Below, in pieces: positions 1,494 through 39,764 of a DNA stretch of 47,555 nucleotides. Position numbers and translations under genes: made by a program. The stretch is from an uncultured Bacillota bacterium (GTDB lineage: Bacteria > Bacillota > Clostridia > Peptostreptococcales > Anaerovoracaceae). Each line of letters opens with the position of its first letter. Position 1 is the first letter of the stretch. The stretch covers positions 1 to 47,555 of the forward strand of contig CAMNNV010000001.1 in assembly GCA_946546075.1 (NCBI GenBank), given 5' to 3'. The notes below the pieces were generated by a model that did no database searches, had not been told where the DNA came from, and worked only from the letters and a program-made list of their open reading frames with translations.

Positions 1494-1700
1494 ATGTTTA
1501 TACTTTTTATTGCTCTCGCAGGCGGCGTAGTGCTTCTTCTGCTGCTTCTGCGGAGCGTTGGTAAAAATACGAAATACAGGATCAAGAACGGAAGAGGTGT
1601 TGAGAAGTTCACTGAGATCGTTAAGGTGATCCTTCTCATTGAGACTGTTATATATATAGTCGTATTTGTAGTAGTAATCATAAAGACACTAGCTCTTTAA
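1494..1700 (+). CDS. Small hypothetical membrane protein, two predicted TM helices
   Basis: 68 aa with two hydrophobic stretches around a basic loop. It has its own promoter, a GAAAGGA SD-like site upstream and a terminator directly downstream. Confidence 0.6.
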   Translation: MFILFIALAGGVVLLLLLLRSVGKNTKYRIKNGRGVEKFTEIVKVILLIETVIYIVVFVVVIIKTLAL

Positions 1701-1705
1701 GAAAG

Positions 1706-1733
1706 AAGCGGACCCAGATTGGATCCGCTTTTT
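1706..1733. terminator. Rho-independent terminator between convergent genes
   Basis: AAGCGGA...TCCGCTT stem followed by TTT, with an A-rich 5' side. Confidence 0.7.
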
Positions 1734-1742
1734 GATTGCTTT

Positions 1743-2291
1743 TTAGAATCGGTCGCTGTACTGGATGAGGCTCCTGATGTAGCCTGTACGCGGTTTGCTT
1801 CCGCCTCCCATGACAGTGTTGTAATATACGATGGACGCTTCCAATGAATCTTCGCTTGTGCGAATGATGGCATAGGTCCCGCCGGAGCCGTCTCTTGGCA
1901 GCGACAGGCTTCCGGGATTCACAAAGCGTATGCCGTCGTACTCTTCTATGAGTGCGCAGTGGGTGTGCCCGAATACCGCTGCGATGCAGTCCTCCTCGCT
2001 AGCTTTGTACAATAGGTTCTGGAGGTCGTAGTCGACGTGCTGCATGTGTCCGTGGGTCACCAGGATGTTGCCGCACTCTGTTTCGACGATCTCGAAATCG
2101 CTGCTGCTCATGCTGCCGTCGCAGTTGCCTTTGACGCAGACGACCGGCACGTGGAATTCGTCCGAAAGATCCAGTCCGTCCCGCATGTAGTCTCCCGTGT
2201 GTATGATCAGATCGATATCCCGGAGTTTGCTCCAGATATCTCTGACTTTATTCAGTTTGCCGTGTGTATCTCCGATGACTAAAATTTTCAT
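1743..2291 (-). CDS. YfcE/YsnB (MJ0936) family metallophosphoesterase
   Basis: Motifs IGDTHG, HTGD, VKGNCD, THGH, FGHTH, NPGS. Confidence 0.9.
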   Translation of the reverse strand: MKILVIGDTHGKLNKVRDIWSKLRDIDLIIHTGDYMRDGLDLSDEFHVPVVCVKGNCDGSMSSSDFEIVETECGNILVTHGHMQHVDYDLQNLLYKASEEDCIAAVFGHTHCALIEEYDGIRFVNPGSLSLPRDGSGGTYAIIRTSEDSLEASIVYYNTVMGGGSKPRTGYIRSLIQYSDRF

Positions 2292-2297
2292 GAACCT

Positions 2298-2326
2298 AGT
2301 TTAGCATATAGCGGAGCCGTCAGCAA
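2298..2326 (-). promoter_or_regulatory. Extended -10 promoter, probably giving a leaderless transcript of the phosphoesterase
   Basis: Minus strand reads TTGCTG-N17-TAAACT with TGn before the -10. The ATG lies 6 nt after the -10 and there is no room for an SD. Confidence 0.5.
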
Positions 2327-2329
2327 ACA

Positions 2330-2358
2330 TTGACGAGAATTCTTTTATAAAGTACAAT
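2330..2358 (+). promoter_or_regulatory. sigma-A-type promoter of the MoaA-like/Fic-like operon
   Basis: TTGACG-N17-TACAAT. Confidence 0.65.
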
Positions 2359-2392
2359 AATAAATGTAAACTTATGGATATGAGAGGCAGAA

Positions 2393-2818
2393 ATGAAAGA
2401 TAGTAATATATACGTTACAGATGGTCAGGACCTGGCCGAAAAAGCAGAAGAACTCAAAGCATCCGGTGTGACCGGAGTCACCGTAGTGGTAAACACATTC
2501 AATTTCACAAGATATAACAAGACGAATGATGGCAAGCATCTGCAGCCTGTGATCGACGGGATCAATGCAGCGAAGAAGCAGAAGATGGATGTAAGACTGA
2601 ATGTTGAGATCAAGGAAGGTTTCAATGAGGATGAAGTCATAGATTTCCTGCAGCTCACCTATCAGCATGATTACGACATCGTTTTCATGCCTACCATCAG
2701 TTATGATTTTCTGAAGAGTAAAATGCCGGCCCTGCGCAAGGTCAAAGACGACAGTGAAGGTGTGGAGTTTTACAAGTATCCCGGAGCTATTGGGAGAATA
2801 GGTTTTATCACGAATTAG
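2393..2818 (+). CDS. MoaA-like protein fragment with no Fe-S cysteine motifs (probable pseudoenzyme)
   Basis: VTDGQDLAEKAEELKASGV, VIDGINAAK, IKEGFNEDEVIDFL and YKYPGAIGRIGFI mirror the central/C-terminal part of GTP 3',8-cyclase MoaA. The protein has no Cys. A GAGAGG SD precedes the ATG. Confidence 0.6.
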   Translation: MKDSNIYVTDGQDLAEKAEELKASGVTGVTVVVNTFNFTRYNKTNDGKHLQPVIDGINAAKKQKMDVRLNVEIKEGFNEDEVIDFLQLTYQHDYDIVFMPTISYDFLKSKMPALRKVKDDSEGVEFYKYPGAIGRIGFITN

Positions 2819-2828
2819 GGAGAGTGTC

Positions 2829-3569
2829 ATGCAGCACGAGAAATTAAACAGCATGAGAAAACAGCTGGCAAATTATCTGAGATCAGATGAATTGCTGAGG
2901 AATGCGATCAAAGAGCTGAGTTCCAAGGACATGATCAGAGGGTCGCTGCTTGCCAGGAATGCGCATCACAGCCAGGTAAAGCTCGACGAGATCCTCGATG
3001 AAGGGGAGCTCCAGAGAGATCTGCCGGTCAAGGATTACGTATTCATACAGAATTTCAGAGATGTGGTCAGAGTCGGCATGGTATGCCTGGAGATGGGAAA
3101 TTACCTGGATAAGTACCTGCTGCTCAGTTCCTACAGGACACTGACAGGCGATCAGAGTGCATATTTCAGGAAGACGAATCCTGTGATCTACTCCATCAAT
3201 CATGTACCTGCCCATTCTCTTGACATAGAAGATAAGCTGGATGACTGCCTGAGGCGCGTGTACAGAGCCGATTCCGGAAACGACGTGGTACTCAAGGCCA
3301 TGTTCATCCACAACAAGATGATCGATATCTATCCTTTCGAGGAATACAGCATAGAGCTGGCCATATTCGCTATGAATTATTTCCTGATGGAGAATGGCCT
3401 CGTTCCGGTGAACATGCCGATCGACAGGCGCAGTTATCTGGAGATCGTAGGGGAGAACCTCAAGGGTCACAGGCAGGAAGAATTCTACGGATTCCTCCAG
3501 AAAGCCATTTACGATAAGATGGAGGGAACGCTCACAGCCTGCGAAGAGTATGTACGTGAAAACAAATAA
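2829..3569 (+). CDS. Fic/DOC-fold protein with a degenerate active site
   Basis: Layout matches class II Fic proteins (FRKTNPVI..NHVPAH, LKAMFIHNKMIDIYPF, MNYFLMENGLVP), but HPFxDGNGRxxR reads YPFEEYSIELAI. Confidence 0.7.
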   Translation: MQHEKLNSMRKQLANYLRSDELLRNAIKELSSKDMIRGSLLARNAHHSQVKLDEILDEGELQRDLPVKDYVFIQNFRDVVRVGMVCLEMGNYLDKYLLLSSYRTLTGDQSAYFRKTNPVIYSINHVPAHSLDIEDKLDDCLRRVYRADSGNDVVLKAMFIHNKMIDIYPFEEYSIELAIFAMNYFLMENGLVPVNMPIDRRSYLEIVGENLKGHRQEEFYGFLQKAIYDKMEGTLTACEEYVRENK

Positions 3570-3587
3570 TTAAGAAATGCAATAAAA

Positions 3588-3625
3588 GATCTGCCCGCAA
3601 TGAAGCGGGCAGATCCGTTTTTTTT
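3588..3625. terminator. Bidirectional Rho-independent terminator
   Basis: GATCTGCCCGC-aatgaa-GCGGGCAGATC, with a T-run downstream and an A-run upstream. Confidence 0.85.
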
Positions 3626-4994
3626 ATTTGGATTTTTTGATGGCCTCGAGCTGCGCTTTGACGCTCTCAAAGGATGTTGAGCCTTCTGATTTCTTGGCTC
3701 TTATGCAGCTTTCGGGATCGATGTTTTCGTAGATATCCTCATCGAATTTATCGGAGAACTCCTTGAGTTTCTCAAGCGGGATATCTTCGATAGCCGTGCT
3801 GTTCTGGATGCAGTACAGTACGATGTGACCGATGATCTCGTGGCAGTCGCGGAACGGGATCCCTTTGCGTACGAGGTAGTCGGCAGCATCCGTAGCGTTC
3901 ATGAATCCGTTCTTGACGGCGGCACGCATGGTGTCCTTATTGAAGGTGATGGTGCTGACCATCTCTGTGAAGATGCCGATGGATGCCTTCAGGGTATCTA
4001 CGGCATCGAATACTGGCGGCTTGTCTTCCTGCATATCCTTGTTGTATGCCAGCGGCAGGCTCTTCATGAGGGTGTAGAGGCTCAGCATATCGCCGTAAAC
4101 TCTTCCCGTCTTGCCTCGGATCAGCTCTGCCATATCAGGATTCTTCTTCTGTGGCATGATGCTGCTTCCCGTGCTGAAGGCATCGTCCATCTCGATGAAT
4201 CCGAACTCAGTGGAATTCCAGAGAATGAGCTCCTCGCAGAACCTCGAAAGATGCATCATGATGATGGATGCGCAGGAGAGGAATTCCAAAGCGAAATCTC
4301 TGTCGCTTACTGCGTCGATGCTGTTCGGGCAGACTCTGTCGAAACCCAGCTTCTCGGCGAGGAACTGTCTGTCCGTATTATAAGTGGTGCCGGCCAGTGC
4401 TCCGCTTCCCAGTGGGAGAGCATTCATCCTGGCTCTGCAGTCTGCCAGTCTCGATACGTCCCTTGAGAACATCTGATAGTACGCCAGCATGTAGTGAGCA
4501 AGCGTCACAGGCTGCGCCCTCTGCAGGTGCGTATAGCCCGGCATGATGGTTTCCTGATTCTTCTCTGCGATATCATACAAAGTGTCCCCGAGCTTCTCAA
4601 GAAGGGAGGAGATGATGTCGATCTCTTCTCTCATGTAAAGTCTGAAGTCTACGGCTACCTGATCGTTTCGGCTCCTTGCGGTGTGGAGCTTCTTGCCCGT
4701 ATCTCCGATGCGCTCCGTAAGGACGGTCTCGATGTTCATGTGGATGTCTTCACCCTCGATGGTGAATTCCACTTTGCCTGCTTCGATGTCTTCTTTGATC
4801 TGAGCCAGTGTCTCGGTGATGAGATCTGCCTCTTCCTGCGTCAGGATGCCCTGCTTGGCCAGCATCTGTGCGTGTGCCGTGCTCCCCTGGATATCCTGTG
4901 CGTAGAATCTCTGGTCGAACTGTATGGACGCATTGAATTCATTCGCTGATTGAGTGGCAGATTTCGTGAACCTGCCTTTCCACATTTTTGCCAT
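3624..4994 (-). CDS. argH: Argininosuccinate lyase
   Basis: MWKGRF, HTARSRNDQV, PGYTHLQRAQP, GSSIMPQKKNPD, YNKDMQEDK. Confidence 0.97.
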   Translation of the reverse strand: MAKMWKGRFTKSATQSANEFNASIQFDQRFYAQDIQGSTAHAQMLAKQGILTQEEADLITETLAQIKEDIEAGKVEFTIEGEDIHMNIETVLTERIGDTGKKLHTARSRNDQVAVDFRLYMREEIDIISSLLEKLGDTLYDIAEKNQETIMPGYTHLQRAQPVTLAHYMLAYYQMFSRDVSRLADCRARMNALPLGSGALAGTTYNTDRQFLAEKLGFDRVCPNSIDAVSDRDFALEFLSCASIIMMHLSRFCEELILWNSTEFGFIEMDDAFSTGSSIMPQKKNPDMAELIRGKTGRVYGDMLSLYTLMKSLPLAYNKDMQEDKPPVFDAVDTLKASIGIFTEMVSTITFNKDTMRAAVKNGFMNATDAADYLVRKGIPFRDCHEIIGHIVLYCIQNSTAIEDIPLEKLKEFSDKFDEDIYENIDPESCIRAKKSEGSTSFESVKAQLEAIKKSK

Positions 4995-5063: not shown

Positions 5064-5092
5064 TTGCAAGGTCAGGAGTTGTCTGATATAAT
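5064..5092 (+). promoter_or_regulatory. sigma-A promoter (extended -10) of the Lon-like ATPase
   Basis: TTGCAA-N17-TATAAT with TGa before the -10. This supports ATG 5124 as the real start. Confidence 0.7.
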
Positions 5093-5123
5093 CGTGTGGC
5101 AAGATCAGAAGAGGAGGGCAGAT

Positions 5124-6611
5124 ATGCCGGTATTTGATTTCAGTAAGACTCCGGAAAAAAACACGGATCCGATATGTACATACGAATTATTTTACTCTAA
5201 CGCTCACGAGATGGGATCTGAGAATCCTGTCCTCGTCATAGATAATACGAAGTGGAAATGGGAGGATCATGCCAAGGGCATGTTCACGAATCCCGTCAAG
5301 CGCACGAGCTTCGAGTTTGAAACGGAGACAGGCGTCTGGTCTGCGGACATCACACGCATCGATGCCAGATTCACAAGCCTCATCCAGTGGCTCGGCGAAA
5401 ACCATATCAATGTAAGCCTGACAGGCGTGAATACCGAGGACGGATATGCGGTTTTCGGTATCAACGAGATCGCATTTGGAGGCGGTACGAAGCTGTCTGC
5501 AGAGGACGGATTCCTCCAGTATATGATCGACAGACTCATTGCAGGAGATGCTCCTTCCGAGGAAGCCCTCGCAGGCGAAGAACTGATCCTGGAAGGGGAC
5601 GCCATGAAGCTTACGTCCATCCAGAGCATCACCGACTTCATCAAGTGCGCCGGGACGACTTTGCCTGACAACATCAGACTCTGGGCGAGCAGGAACCTGG
5701 CGGTTGCCAAGTCCAACGAGGTGACTGCGGCAGAGCGCCGTCACGCTCAGAGAGCACTGTCCATCATGCTCAACGTGCAGTGGAGGAACAACTATTTCGA
5801 GGCCATCGATCCTGTGGAAGCAAGGCGCATCCTGGACGAAGAACTCTACGGTATGGAGCCTGTGAAGCAGAGGATCATAGAGACGATCATCCAGATCAAC
5901 AGGACCCACACACTTCCTGCCTATGGTATCCTTCTCATCGGCCCTGCAGGGACCGGTAAATCACAGATCGCCTATGCAGTCGCAAGGATACTGAAACTCC
6001 CATGGACGACACTCGACATGAGTTCCATCAACGATCCGGAGCAGCTCACGGGAAGCTCCAGGATCTACTCCAACGCGAAGCCGGGCATGATCATGGAGGC
6101 CTTCTCTCATGCAGGAGAATCCAACCTGGTGTTCATCATCAACGAGCTGGACAAGGCCAACAGCGGCAAGGGTAGCGCCAATCCATCCGACGTGCTCCTG
6201 ACGCTCCTTGACAACCTGGGATTCACCGACAACTACATGGAGTGCATGATCCCGACATCCGGTGTATATCCTATCGCCACGGCAAACAGGAAGGAAGACA
6301 TCAGTGCACCGCTGCTCTCAAGATTCGCCATCATAGAGCTTCCGGACTACACCGATGAAGAAAAGAAGATCATATTCTCCGAGTACTCACTTCCGAAGGT
6401 CATCCGGAAGATGGGCCTCAAAGATGGGGAGTGCGAGGTCACCGAAGACGGTCTTGACGAGATCATCAGGGATCACAACGAGTCCGGCGGCATCAGAGAG
6501 CTGGAGCAGATCGCAGAACACATGGCCGCCAACGCTCTCTATCAGATCGAAGCAGAAGGCGCAAAGAACGTCGTGTTCGATGCAGAAGCCGTACGTAGGT
6601 TAATTAAATAA
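5124..6611 (+). CDS. Lon-type AAA+ ATPase lacking the protease domain
   Basis: Strong SD GAGGAGG before ATG 5124. Lon-like ARRILDEELYGMEPVKQRIIE, Walker A GPAGTGKS, Walker B region FIINELDK, TAN, LLSRFAIIELPDYTDEEK and GGIRELEQ. The protein ends with no Ser-Lys protease domain. Confidence 0.8.
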   Translation: MPVFDFSKTPEKNTDPICTYELFYSNAHEMGSENPVLVIDNTKWKWEDHAKGMFTNPVKRTSFEFETETGVWSADITRIDARFTSLIQWLGENHINVSLTGVNTEDGYAVFGINEIAFGGGTKLSAEDGFLQYMIDRLIAGDAPSEEALAGEELILEGDAMKLTSIQSITDFIKCAGTTLPDNIRLWASRNLAVAKSNEVTAAERRHAQRALSIMLNVQWRNNYFEAIDPVEARRILDEELYGMEPVKQRIIETIIQINRTHTLPAYGILLIGPAGTGKSQIAYAVARILKLPWTTLDMSSINDPEQLTGSSRIYSNAKPGMIMEAFSHAGESNLVFIINELDKANSGKGSANPSDVLLTLLDNLGFTDNYMECMIPTSGVYPIATANRKEDISAPLLSRFAIIELPDYTDEEKKIIFSEYSLPKVIRKMGLKDGECEVTEDGLDEIIRDHNESGGIRELEQIAEHMAANALYQIEAEGAKNVVFDAEAVRRLIK

Positions 6612-6640: not shown

Positions 6641-6835
6641 CAAGTGCTGGTGTGATGACTGTGTATTTTCCGCAGAAACAGCACTCGTTACCACGAATCA
6701 ATAATAAGAACATAAAATCCCGGGAACTGTCTGAGCCTTCAGGCGAGTTTTCCCGGGATTTGTTATGTTCTTTATTGATGAGTGATGTAACGATCTGTTT
6801 TGAGGACCTTTACACAGTCATTGCACCATCACTTG
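6641..6835 (+). repeat. ~195-nt imperfect palindrome (rod-like hairpin) whose inner stem can serve as a bidirectional terminator
   Basis: Outer arms 6641-6665/6811-6835 pair at 24 of 25 positions (2 G-U). Nested pairs: AAACAG/CTGTTT, TCGTTAC/GTAACGA, ATCAATAA/TTATTGAT, AAGAACATAA/TTATGTTCTT, AATCCCGGGAA/TTCCCGGGATT, TGTCTGA/TCAGGCG, closing a GCCT loop. Confidence 0.85.
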
Positions 6836-8058
6836 TTGTTTTCGTTCTCCAGCTCTTTCATCTTCATTGCACGTACCTTGAGTGGCAGTCCCCAAAGAGT
6901 GATGAATCCTTCTGCATCGTGGTGGTCGTAAAGGTCACCTGTTGTGAAGGATGCCAGGCTCTCATCGTAGAGGGAGTACGGTGAAGTTGTTCCGGCCTTG
7001 ATGATGTTGCCCTTGTACAGCTTGAACTTGACTTCGCCTGTTACGTACTTCTGCGTTGACTTCACGAATGCGATCATAGCTTCGTTCACCGGAGTGAACC
7101 ATTTACCTTCATAGATCGTCTGAGCCATGCGGTTTGCGATGTCCTTCTTGAGGTCTGTCGTAGCGCGGTCGAGTACCAGCTCTTCCAGCTGCTGGTGTGC
7201 CTCCATGAGGATCGTTCCACCCGGAGTCTCATATACGCCTCTTGACTTCATACCTACAACACGGTTCTCAACGATATCGATGATGCCGATGCCGTGCTTG
7301 CCGCCCAGTTCGTTGAGCTTCTTTATGATATCGGAAGGTTTCATTTCTTCGCCGTTTATGGATACAGGAACACCTTCTTTGAACTTCATTGTTACATATT
7401 CACCTTCGTCAGGTGCTTTCTCAGGTGGGTTAGTGAGTACAAGCAGATGCTCGTAGTTTGGCTCCAGTGATGGTCTTTCGAGTTCAAGTCCTTCGTGGCT
7501 CAGGTGCCAGAGGTTACGGTCACGTGAGTAACTCTGGTCGTTTGAGAACGGAAGATCGATGCCGTGTGCTTTGCAGTAGTCGATCTCTGCCTGACGTGAA
7601 TCCATCTGCCATTTGTCGTCTCTCCATGGAGCAATGACCTGAAGTTCAGGAGCAAGTGCCTTGATGCCCAGTTCGAAACGGATCTGGTCGTTGCCTTTAC
7701 CGGTAGCACCGTGGCAGATCGCAACGGCACCTTCCTTGCGTGCGACTTCTACGAGAGCCTTTGTGATGACAGGACGTGCCATGGCAGTACCCAGCAGGTA
7801 TTTGTTCTCATATACTGCTCCGGCCTGTACGCAAGGCATGATGAAATCTTCTGCGAATTCATCTACTACATCCTCGATATATAATTTAGCTGCTCCGGAA
7901 TACTTGGCTCTTTCTTCGAGTCCATCAAGCTCTTCACCCTGTCCGCAGTCTACGCAGCAACATACTACATCGTAACCATAATTCTCCTTCAGCCAGGGGA
8001 TGATAGCTGTCGTATCAAGACCGCCTGAATAAGCCAGAACCACTTTTTCTTTTGCCAT
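6829..8058 (-). CDS. argG: Argininosuccinate synthase
   Basis: VVLAYSGGLDT, HGATGKGNDQIRFE, YSRDRNLWH, SRGVYETPGG. Confidence 0.97.
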   Translation of the reverse strand: MAKEKVVLAYSGGLDTTAIIPWLKENYGYDVVCCCVDCGQGEELDGLEERAKYSGAAKLYIEDVVDEFAEDFIMPCVQAGAVYENKYLLGTAMARPVITKALVEVARKEGAVAICHGATGKGNDQIRFELGIKALAPELQVIAPWRDDKWQMDSRQAEIDYCKAHGIDLPFSNDQSYSRDRNLWHLSHEGLELERPSLEPNYEHLLVLTNPPEKAPDEGEYVTMKFKEGVPVSINGEEMKPSDIIKKLNELGGKHGIGIIDIVENRVVGMKSRGVYETPGGTILMEAHQQLEELVLDRATTDLKKDIANRMAQTIYEGKWFTPVNEAMIAFVKSTQKYVTGEVKFKLYKGNIIKAGTTSPYSLYDESLASFTTGDLYDHHDAEGFITLWGLPLKVRAMKMKELENENNK

Positions 8059-37817: not shown

Positions 37818-39764
37818 ATGGAAGATAAAAGAAAACGCATGGAGGAGAGGGTGGCTCTCCTGAACAAAGCGGCCCGGGTATACTACCAGGAAAGCAATGA
37901 GATCATGTCCAACCAGGAATACGATAAGCTCTACGATGAGCTCTGCGCCTGGGAAGAGGAGACAGGCATCATCCTTGCGGGAAGCCCTACACAGAAAGTA
38001 GGCTATGAGATCATCAGCAGCCTGCCAAAAGAGCAGCATCCTTCCCCGATGCTGTCCCTGGACAAGACGAAGGAGCCGGAGCAGCTGCGGACCTGGCTTG
38101 GAGACAAAGAAGGCCTCCTTTCCTGGAAGCTGGACGGCCTCACCATAGTCCTCACCTATGAAAACGGCGAGCTTACCAAGGCCGTGACGCGAGGCGACGG
38201 AGTCACCGGGGAAGTCATTACCGCCAATGCAAAAGTGTTCGACAACGTGCCCCTTAAGATCCCGCAGACCGAGCAGCTCGTCGTCAGAGGGGAAGCGGTC
38301 ATCGCATACGAAGACTTCGAAGCCATCAACGAGACTATAGGAGACGCAGACGCCAGATACAAAAACCCGCGAAACCTTTGCGCGGGGACGGTAAGGCAGC
38401 TGAACACAAAGATCACCGCGGAGCGCCACGTGAGGTTCTACGCCTTTTCTGTGGCATCCGGGATAGAACGGGACTACAGACATGAGCAGCTGGAGCATCT
38501 CAAGGAGCTGGGATTTGAAACGGTGGAGTACGTCAAAGTAGAAGGGAGCACCATCATCGGCGAGATCGATGCTTATTCTGCAAAGGTCGCGGAGTATCCT
38601 CTCCCATCGGACGGGCTCGTGCTCATATACGATGATATCGCATACGGCAGGTCTCTTGGGAGCACTGCAAAGTTTCCGAGGGATTCCATGGCCTTCAAGT
38701 GGCGCGACGAGACGAAGGAGACGGTCCTCCGGGAGATCCTGTGGAGCCCTTCCAGGACAGGCCTCATCAATCCTATCGCCGTGTTTGATCCTGTGGAGCT
38801 CGAAGGGACAACGGTGACGAGAGCTTCCGTGCATAATGTGAGCATCCTGGAGAGTCTCAAACTGAGGCCGGGAGACACGGTGACGGTATACAAAGCGAAT
38901 ATGATCATCCCGCAGATCGCGGAGAATCTGACGGGAAGCGGTCCGGATGCTTTGCCTGAGGCATGCCCTGTATGCGGTGGCAGAGCCGTGATCCGCGATG
39001 AGAAGGGGATCAAGACACTCTGGTGCGAAAACCCTGATTGTCCTGCGAAGAGAATCAAAAGCTTCGCGCATTTCGCGGGGAGAAACGCCATGAACATCGA
39101 AGGACTTTCGGAGGCGACCCTCGAGAAACTGGTGGATGAGGGCATGGTCACGGAGCCTGCAGATCTTTTCAAACTGAGCAGGTTCGAGGACAGGATCACC
39201 GGGATGGATGGATTCGGCAGAAAATCATACGAGAATCTCGTGGCGGCAGCGGAAGCAGCATCCCATACGAGTCCGGACAGACTTTTGAGCAGTCTTGGTG
39301 TGCCGGGGATCGGCTTGGCCAATGCGAAGGTGATCGCGTCCTACTGTGAGAACGATTGGAAGAAGATGCGTGCTCTTACCTGTGAGGAACTTGAGAATAT
39401 CGACGGGGTGGGCAAAGTCCTGGCGGAAGGATATGAATCCTTTTTCGCAGACCCCGCCAATGCGTCCATCGTGGATGCCCTTGAGGAAGTTCTTACATTA
39501 GATGAGACGTTCGAGCAGAGCGGGAGCGCCCTGGAGGGACTCACCTTCGTGATCACTGGTAAGGTCAATCATTTCGCCAACAGAGATGAGGCCAAGGCAG
39601 CCATCGAGGCGGCAGGAGGCAAAACGACGGGAAGCGTTACAAGCAAGACGGATTACCTTATCAATAATGATATTACTTCAACATCCGGCAAGAATAAAAA
39701 GGCTAAGGAACTCGGCATCCCGATCATAACGGAGGAAGAGCTCCTTCAGATGATGGGGGTGTAG
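37818..39764 (+). CDS. ligA: NAD-dependent DNA ligase
   Basis: MLSLDK, KLDG, TRGDG, RGE, NPRN, Zn finger CPVCG..CENPDC, C-terminal BRCT domain. Confidence 0.96.
   Translation: MEDKRKRMEERVALLNKAARVYYQESNEIMSNQEYDKLYDELCAWEEETGIILAGSPTQKVGYEIISSLPKEQHPSPMLSLDKTKEPEQLRTWLGDKEGLLSWKLDGLTIVLTYENGELTKAVTRGDGVTGEVITANAKVFDNVPLKIPQTEQLVVRGEAVIAYEDFEAINETIGDADARYKNPRNLCAGTVRQLNTKITAERHVRFYAFSVASGIERDYRHEQLEHLKELGFETVEYVKVEGSTIIGEIDAYSAKVAEYPLPSDGLVLIYDDIAYGRSLGSTAKFPRDSMAFKWRDETKETVLREILWSPSRTGLINPIAVFDPVELEGTTVTRASVHNVSILESLKLRPGDTVTVYKANMIIPQIAENLTGSGPDALPEACPVCGGRAVIRDEKGIKTLWCENPDCPAKRIKSFAHFAGRNAMNIEGLSEATLEKLVDEGMVTEPADLFKLSRFEDRITGMDGFGRKSYENLVAAAEAASHTSPDRLLSSLGVPGIGLANAKVIASYCENDWKKMRALTCEELENIDGVGKVLAEGYESFFADPANASIVDALEEVLTLDETFEQSGSALEGLTFVITGKVNHFANRDEAKAAIEAAGGKTTGSVTSKTDYLINNDITSTSGKNKKAKELGIPIITEEELLQMMGV

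Follow-up and report, generated by a model that had tools for sequence, protein, structure and literature searches.

A cysteine-free MoaA remnant and a Fic-fold protein with a degenerate catalytic loop are encoded side by side in Anaerovoracaceae

Two neighbouring genes in an uncultured Anaerovoracaceae genome encode proteins that lack the motifs of the enzymes they resemble: ORF1 is a half-barrel left over from the radical-SAM enzyme MoaA and ORF2 is a class II-type Fic protein with a dead loop (hereafter the pseudo-Fic). Both were found in a 47,555-nucleotide stretch of DNA, here called the window. As judged from their defining motifs, both fall outside their enzyme families, and we consider it very probable that both are non-catalytic yet functional. 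Among the explanations weighed below, a locked, non-catalytic Fic-fold binder with an optional accessory remnant derived from MoaA ranks first, although we hold it tentatively, and unrelated roles in a shared transcript come a close second.

The two genes are arranged as an operon (Table 1), and the shared promoter, separate Shine-Dalgarno-like sequences, 10-nt gap and terminator described in the initial annotation were all present. A promoter scan of positions 1500-4500 ranked this site best of three, no better than shuffled sequences, which averaged 4.0 sites, hence the scan alone proves nothing on the promoter. The call is supported because a similar box, TTGAC...TA(A/C)AAT, is conserved 5' of the remnant in five relatives (G082, G176, G080, G158 and G053; five of the 11 loci shown). 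The overlap of the second Shine-Dalgarno-like sequence with the ORF1 stop codon suggests translational coupling. The terminator hairpin (3587-3616) is terminator-like on either strand, and is not the operon's alone but also serves the convergent gene, which we take to be argH from its sequence features. No Rfam matches were detected in the window. Near-identical contig pieces at a depth of 2-3 occurred in two RNA runs of study P1, covering 2561-2728 (X3), and 3243-3393 and 3430-3580 (X1), however, these were not counted as proof of expression because their shares were small and DNA carry-over is possible.

Table 1. Coordinates of the features discussed; positions refer to the window unless a locus is named.
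Feature	Coordinates	Strand	Basis or remark
YfcE-like metallophosphoesterase	1743..2291	-	conserved divergent neighbour, context outside the pair
Sigma-70-type promoter TTGACG-N17-TACAAT	2330..2358	+	-35 TTGACG at 2330-2335, 17-nt spacer, -10 TACAAT at 2353-2358 (sequence); divergent from yfcE-like gene
Shine-Dalgarno-like GAGAGG of ORF1	2382..2387	+	sequence
ORF1, Cys-free MoaA remnant, 141 aa	2393..2818	+	profile, model, dN/dS 0.06 vs L173
QLT(F/Y)QH helix end, residues 87-92	2651..2668	+	alignment of MoaA groups
Shine-Dalgarno-like AGGGAG of ORF2	2817..2822	+	sequence; overlaps ORF1 stop codon
ORF2, class II-type pseudo-Fic, 246 aa	2829..3569	+	full Fido fold, degenerate catalytic loop
Alpha-inh position SLLARN, residues 39-44	2943..2960	+	Arg43 replaces inhibitory Glu
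Degenerate Fic loop YPFEEYSIELAI, residues 168-179	3330..3365	+	alignment to HPFIDGNGRTSR
Bidirectional intrinsic terminator	3587..3625	.	hairpin 3587-3616; common to operon and convergent argH
argH (presumed)	3624..4994	-	conserved convergent neighbour, context
MoeA fragment, clade A	L081:6006-6320		
MoeA fragment, clade A	L082:5536-5916		
MoeA fragment, clade A	L088:4984-5310		
MoeA fragment, clade A	L089:8041-8355		
MoeA fragment, clade A	L090:5532-5888		
MoeA fragment, clade A	L091:8324-8662		
MoeA fragment, clade A	L135:4486-4938		

ORF1 had initially been read as a Cys-free MoaA fragment lying between the two cluster motifs, and profile, alignment and model bear this out. It has zero cysteines and matches the TIGR02666 moaA profile over model positions 98-193 (E 4.8e-16, far below the cut-off). 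Its AF2 model (pLDDT 91) aligns structurally with residues 95-255 of MoaA 1tv7 (Z 14.6, rmsd 2.2, 141 residues aligned), which identifies it as the C-terminal half of the radical-SAM barrel and the following hairpin. Compared with intact orthologues it starts past CxxxCxxC, ends just short of CxxC-x13-C and carries an additional internal deletion of ~19 residues. MoaA descent (from an intact moaA of the same locus) and a partial barrel fold are present, whereas both Fe-S motifs, the N-terminal strands, the C-terminal domain and the invariant residues lining the barrel are absent or replaced. Of 120 listed homologues (241 were found), 114 have no Cys and six have one, with a median length of 142 aa. 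The 11 longer homologues in a fusion search were ordinary MoaA of 319-328 aa (weak evidence, from only 7992 scored candidates), and the Fic homologues examined contained no MoaA region. PADLOC gave no match for ORF1, and the only Atlas clusters matched by the homologues P0042 and P0153 were radical-SAM and Fic clusters without a name.

Ligand-lining positions with 100% conservation in intact MoaA have changed in the short family, which has its own invariant set instead. Replaced positions include 1tv7 T102, N104, N124, S126, D128, R192, E194 and M197, all invariant in intact MoaA and presumably involved in ligand contacts. New invariant polar residues (D10, D13, N34, N37, T39 and T101) are grouped at the strand-end loops, and G76 and E81 are retained. 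These residues could be taken to indicate a small-ligand sensor, for an adenosyl compound or nucleotide, on the remodelled SAM face of the barrel. We find such a sensor improbable, given that the equivalents of T102, N124, S126, R192, E194 and M197 have mostly become small or hydrophobic, and that neither the clusters nor the N-terminal strands remain. Likewise, the nucleotide binding raised in the initial annotation is unlikely in the MoaA mode because the barrel-lining residues have been replaced. The QLT(F/Y)QH helix end is a candidate binding patch: Q87 is invariant in 96 short, eight long clade B and seven clade A sequences and in 14 intact MoaA of the locus lineage, and the position is variable in 40 other MoaA.

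Models and alignment also confirmed that ORF2 has class II Fic architecture, a lost catalytic loop and SLLARN at the inhibitory position. The structure searches returned both expected folds, with the ORF2 model (pLDDT 94) matching FICD (Z 23.6, rmsd 2.8) and BT_2513 (Z 23.5, rmsd 3.1) over nearly its full length. The Fido helical core with its flap is present, and helix H21-40 aligns to the TVAIEG region of FICD as the class II alpha-inh helix; whole-chain fold, helix and flap are the same as in class II Fics (FICD/HYPE, BT_2513, SoFic and CdFic; Z 18.7-23.6). Pfam PF02661 scored 23 bits against a cut-off of 24 (E 1.5e-4). Unlike class II Fics, ORF2 lacks the His and the GNG nest, and the inhibitory Glu is absent in the window clade. 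In the alignment, YPFEEYSIELAI stands opposite HPFIDGNGRTSR, with the catalytic His and GNGR gone. The AMPylase loop HPFx(D/E)GN(G/K)RxxR is missing from ORF2, and its His was found in none of 108 complete family representatives.

SLLARN sits where active relatives have SNAIEG. The inhibitory Glu of (S/T)xxxE(G/N) is absent from ORF2, and Asp or Glu is found at this position in 54 of the 108 family representatives. An Arg or Lys at the motif end accompanies the acid in 49 of these 54, compared to 26 of the 54 without it, noting that kin are not independent. In FICD, the partner of the alpha-inh Glu is the final Arg of the motif, and the GNG residues hold the alpha-phosphate (PMC8097203). From the covariation of the alpha-inh acid with the motif-end Arg we infer that the Fic pocket is held shut. 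In the window clade a charge-swapped pair, Arg43 and Glu176, may replace the ancestral acid/Arg pair; the two occur together in 83 of 85 close homologues.

Within the family, conservation is near its lowest in the xDGNGR stretch (0.33, vs 0.91 in 25 active relatives), the first position of the catalytic loop varies (Y, F, W or S), and acidic residues occupy the phosphate nest. Residues conserved at ≥90% in the family (e.g. R114, A157, H161, P169 and Y203) look structural, since most are also conserved in active relatives. AvrB, a secreted effector with transferase activity, is a distant structural match to ORF2 (Z 9.4), differing in that the pseudo-Fic lacks any conserved substitute for the active site. 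The Fido fold persists in AvrB although the motif is absent, and other activities have been suggested for degenerate Fic/Doc clades (PMC4454073). With its fold intact, the pseudo-Fic could similarly be an enzyme with new chemistry, however, we give this little credence in view of the variable loop, the filled nest and the lack of any invariant new polar constellation. A role by binding is the likely one for the Fic.

The pseudo-Fic was detected in ~110 of 201 Anaerovoracaceae genomes (111 with a single-protein query), almost always in single copy, and in all six genomes from a second family in the order, at degenerate-type scores. It is hence not universally required, as slightly fewer than half of the family genomes sampled lack it. 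Across the class, a sample of 300 genomes (one genome unscored), searched at E≤1e-36 to leave out most active Fics, gave only two matches, both from its own family and none from outside. Of 150 representatives listed at 50% identity, the best 119 comprised 115 with a degenerate loop and four that were gapped, with no canonical loop among them. Among active Fics, the closest relatives belong to class II and carry SNAIEG and HPFxDGNGRT(A/S)R; the pseudo-Fic derives from such an active class II Fic, and lost the His and GNG nest before the two carrier families split. In both families it lies mostly near argG/argH or murB-PHP-rapZ, and across 48 genomes the Fic tree follows the RapZ tree. The pseudo-Fic is therefore old, vertically inherited and mostly held at a fixed chromosomal site, and differs from class II Fics in being single-copy, vertical and fixed in its locus. 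Homologues come from Allocopromorpha, Lentihominibacter, Copromorpha and Anaerovorax, with Lentihominibacter hominis and Anaerovorax odorimutans as cultured, named carriers of the Fic gene. One genome (G010:C18:28006-28716 and 38461-39171) has two inverted copies of identical score 10 kb apart, either an inverted duplication or an assembly artefact.

Both genes are maintained rather than decaying, as the initial annotation supposed, and evolve under strong purifying selection, with dN/dS far below 1. Ratios were calculated by the Nei-Gojobori method, and many distant pairs were saturated and gave no value. Between the window and L173, dN/dS was 0.06 for ORF1, 0.04 for ORF2, 0.08 for yfcE and 0.02 for partial argH, and between L001 and L002 it was 0.043 and 0.046 for ORF1 and ORF2, respectively. 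Medians over unsaturated pairs were 0.16 for ORF1 (n = 41, range 0.04-0.55), 0.065 for ORF2 (n = 17, range 0.03-0.48) and 0.26 for yfcE (n = 21), whilst the clade A pair G020 and G134 gave 0.11 for moa and 0.20 for fic. The progressive truncation of MoaA and a few split Fic matches in other genomes might suggest that both genes are recently decaying pseudogenes, however, the dN/dS values (0.04-0.10 in most informative pairs) refute this. Intact ORFs across 64 genomes, and a remnant family nearly free of Cys (114 of the 120 listed) and fixed in length near 142 aa, also leave next to no probability for decay. Short Fic ORFs in L176 and L209 were set aside as probable sequencing errors because the contigs carry indels (argH is also broken in L176).

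The origin of the pair can be followed in related genomes. Where MoaA is intact, the gene order is moaA-moaC-MOSC-pycB-(mgtC)-Fic, and the pair arose via loss or relocation of the intervening moaC, MOSC, pycB and mgtC. A pycB/oadA-type carboxylase gene is present elsewhere in the window's own genome (G000:C130:1976-3370), hence this gene moved rather than being lost. That genome (72% complete) gave no moaC, moeA or MOSC match, and G176 (99% complete) no moaC. A moaC match was absent from 11 genomes with dead MoaA, while seven have a second, intact moaA-moaC elsewhere. The moaA of the locus was itself shortened stepwise from 330 to 141 aa, with lengths of 312, 285, 284, 281, 241, 200, 197, 195, 187 and 141 aa in the forms lacking Cys motifs. 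Eighteen dead MoaA formed two clades (seven and 11 rows) that branch within the intact MoaA belonging to this locus, in a tree based on a 133-column core and 41 of 75 aligned MoaA rows (LG+G4). A single origin was rejected (p-AU 0.014), hence both Fe-S motifs were lost twice independently. In G091 (L133:3184-3981), on a long branch near clade A, MoaA keeps CxxxCxxC without the C-terminal cluster motif and is an intermediate stage of motif loss.

In clade A, one of the two dead-MoaA lineages, the dead MoaA of seven of seven genomes is immediately preceded by a fragment of ~80 residues derived from the N-terminal region of MoeA (Table 1). It matches MoeA-PBP residues about 58-135 (E down to 1e-11), usually has an acidic N-terminal tail, showed a dN/dS of 0.12 in the one unsaturated pair, and is a second domesticated remnant of a Moco enzyme. 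A recurrent 191-aa protein without a Pfam match (cluster 21; L079:2876-3451 and eight other loci) is encoded at this locus throughout the family, with yfcE on one side and moaA or mgtC on the other.

Within the genus, the remnant is present in 64 of 77 genomes and Fic is directly downstream in all 64, in line with the linked, non-catalytic pair first proposed, as both have lost their motifs. The adjacency was also seen in 32 of 33 informative metagenome loci; of 40 such loci, some near-duplicates, two non-short and five edge-cut ones were set aside. In the family sample, the pseudo-Fic is present in 16 of 18 dead-MoaA genomes. However, 72 of the 77 genus genomes have Fic, and as it is so rarely lost, the 64/64 co-occurrence is near what linkage alone would give. 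Genus genomes lacking both genes were uninformative, as G449, G451 and G434 break at a contig end in yfcE, G455 and G466 also lack a murB match, and G475 and G491 are contig-edge cases.

Either gene also occurs alone. Six genus genomes (G424, G425, G448, G471, G473 and G480) have an intact Fic and no remnant upstream, with yfcE directly adjacent in five. These clean deletions map to five changes on the tree, at least three of them forced by starred branches, and Fic retains ordinary branch lengths afterwards, with no shared substitution. Conversely, the remnant is found without Fic in L198 and in G043, a 99% complete sole genome of its genus, where it is 195 aa long. The G043 remnant shows no clear relaxation, as it is 61% identical to that of G082 compared to 51% for yfcE; QH reads LQ in this sequence. 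Dead MoaA also lies apart from Fic in three of the 18 genomes (G072, G125 and G111), and many genomes have Fic without any MoaA match.

An operon of two tightly adjacent genes that has a promoter and a terminator to itself would suit an obligate heterodimer or a toxin-antitoxin-like module in which Fic has a dedicated partner, and the operon layout is shared with FicTA/Phd-Doc systems. The clean deletions and lone remnant argue against this, since here Fic does persist without its upstream partner. Moreover, the locus is fixed and vertical rather than mobile, the Fic has no catalytic loop, and PADLOC detected only a weak similarity to SoFic (E 6e-5), hence we consider this explanation very improbable. 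The self-contained pair and the antitoxin-like module suggested in the initial annotation are accordingly not supported, as the pseudo-Fic long predates the pair, occurs in many genomes without MoaA and survives ~5 clean deletions of its partner in six genomes. Dependence between these separable genes is at most one-way.

More serious is the alternative that the two proteins do unrelated non-catalytic jobs, and are co-transcribed only because the intervening genes were lost and Fic took the moaA promoter. We regard this as a real though lesser possibility. The ancestral gene order, a Fic unchanged after the remnant deletions, remnants without Fic and non-adjacent dead MoaA are all consistent with it, and the clade A MoeA fragment may point to a partner among the Moco remnants instead. 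Against it stand the 64/64 adjacency, the ribosome-binding site overlapping the ORF1 stop, and bursts in the Fic rate on the two stems where Fic became the remnant's neighbour. The Fic/RapZ branch ratios on these stems, 6.9 for the window clade and 4.2 for clade A, were the two highest over 26 shared internal branches (tree-wide 2.1), a pattern noticed post hoc; on tips of the window clade the ratio was 1.0-1.5. Counting against a link, Fic diverges faster than the remnant between genera of clade A, where dead MoaA shares 55-72% identity and Fic 31-64%. On balance, the odds that the remnant works together with Fic, and not on its own, are about even.

Under the preferred reading, that of a locked binder with an accessory remnant, the Fic pocket would be frozen in the inhibited conformation. 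The conserved flap and helices would then bind a protein target stoichiometrically, leaving it unmodified. The half-barrel derived from MoaA would add a binding surface, formed by the QLTFQH helix and remodelled strand-end loops, and so modulate Fic or its target. The genomes themselves show that moaA was trimmed in steps, and that loss or relocation of moaC, MOSC, pycB and mgtC brought it next to Fic, on the upstream side. A bolder extension, which we consider rather unlikely, is that an ancient chromosomal pseudo-Fic, locked by a salt bridge dating from its auto-inhibited state, is a hub for protein binding that repeatedly domesticated Moco fragments as accessory subunits, reshaping itself each time; the fragments would be MoaA twice and MoeA domain II once, all from Fic's own locus. 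If true, gut Clostridia would possess a new regulatory module that joins one pseudoenzyme to another.

No description of the family was found in the literature searched, largely open-access papers screened by title or abstract. MoeA is reused in a non-metabolic role in actinobacterial Glp and gephyrin (PMC11733289); those are full-length MoeA, whereas here MoaA is reduced to a half-barrel and clade A MoeA to an 80-residue piece. TIGR04347 (pseudo-SAM/SPASM), a curated pseudo radical-SAM family, is a conceptual parallel only, differing in origin and size, and its match to ORF1 is at chance level (E 0.12). Fic proteins have been studied almost entirely as enzymes, with EF-Tu (for SoFic) and GyrB (PMC13327609) among their known targets. 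A dead, housekeeping-like Fic kept in two bacterial families would offer a clean setting in which to study the function of the fold without chemistry. Living genomes also hold a graded series of MoaA death and reuse, from intact MoaA to one motif lost, both lost (twice) and finally 141 residues, which makes the step from enzyme to pseudoenzyme testable. Current annotations are wrong, since they present both products as active proteins under the names “radical SAM”, “MoaA” or “Fic family”.

Three other genes in the window were noted. A 515-aa Lon-like AAA+ protein (5064-6611, + strand) between argH and argG has AAA and weak Lon_lid matches and no protease-domain match, and is not at the same place in L002 or L087. 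The neighbouring argG (6829-8058, - strand) is 56% identical to that of the genus relative G473, compared to 73% for argH, and is a possible xenologous replacement. A membrane protein (92-1378, + strand) combines DUF4234, a Gln-rich linker and a C-terminal SHOCT domain.
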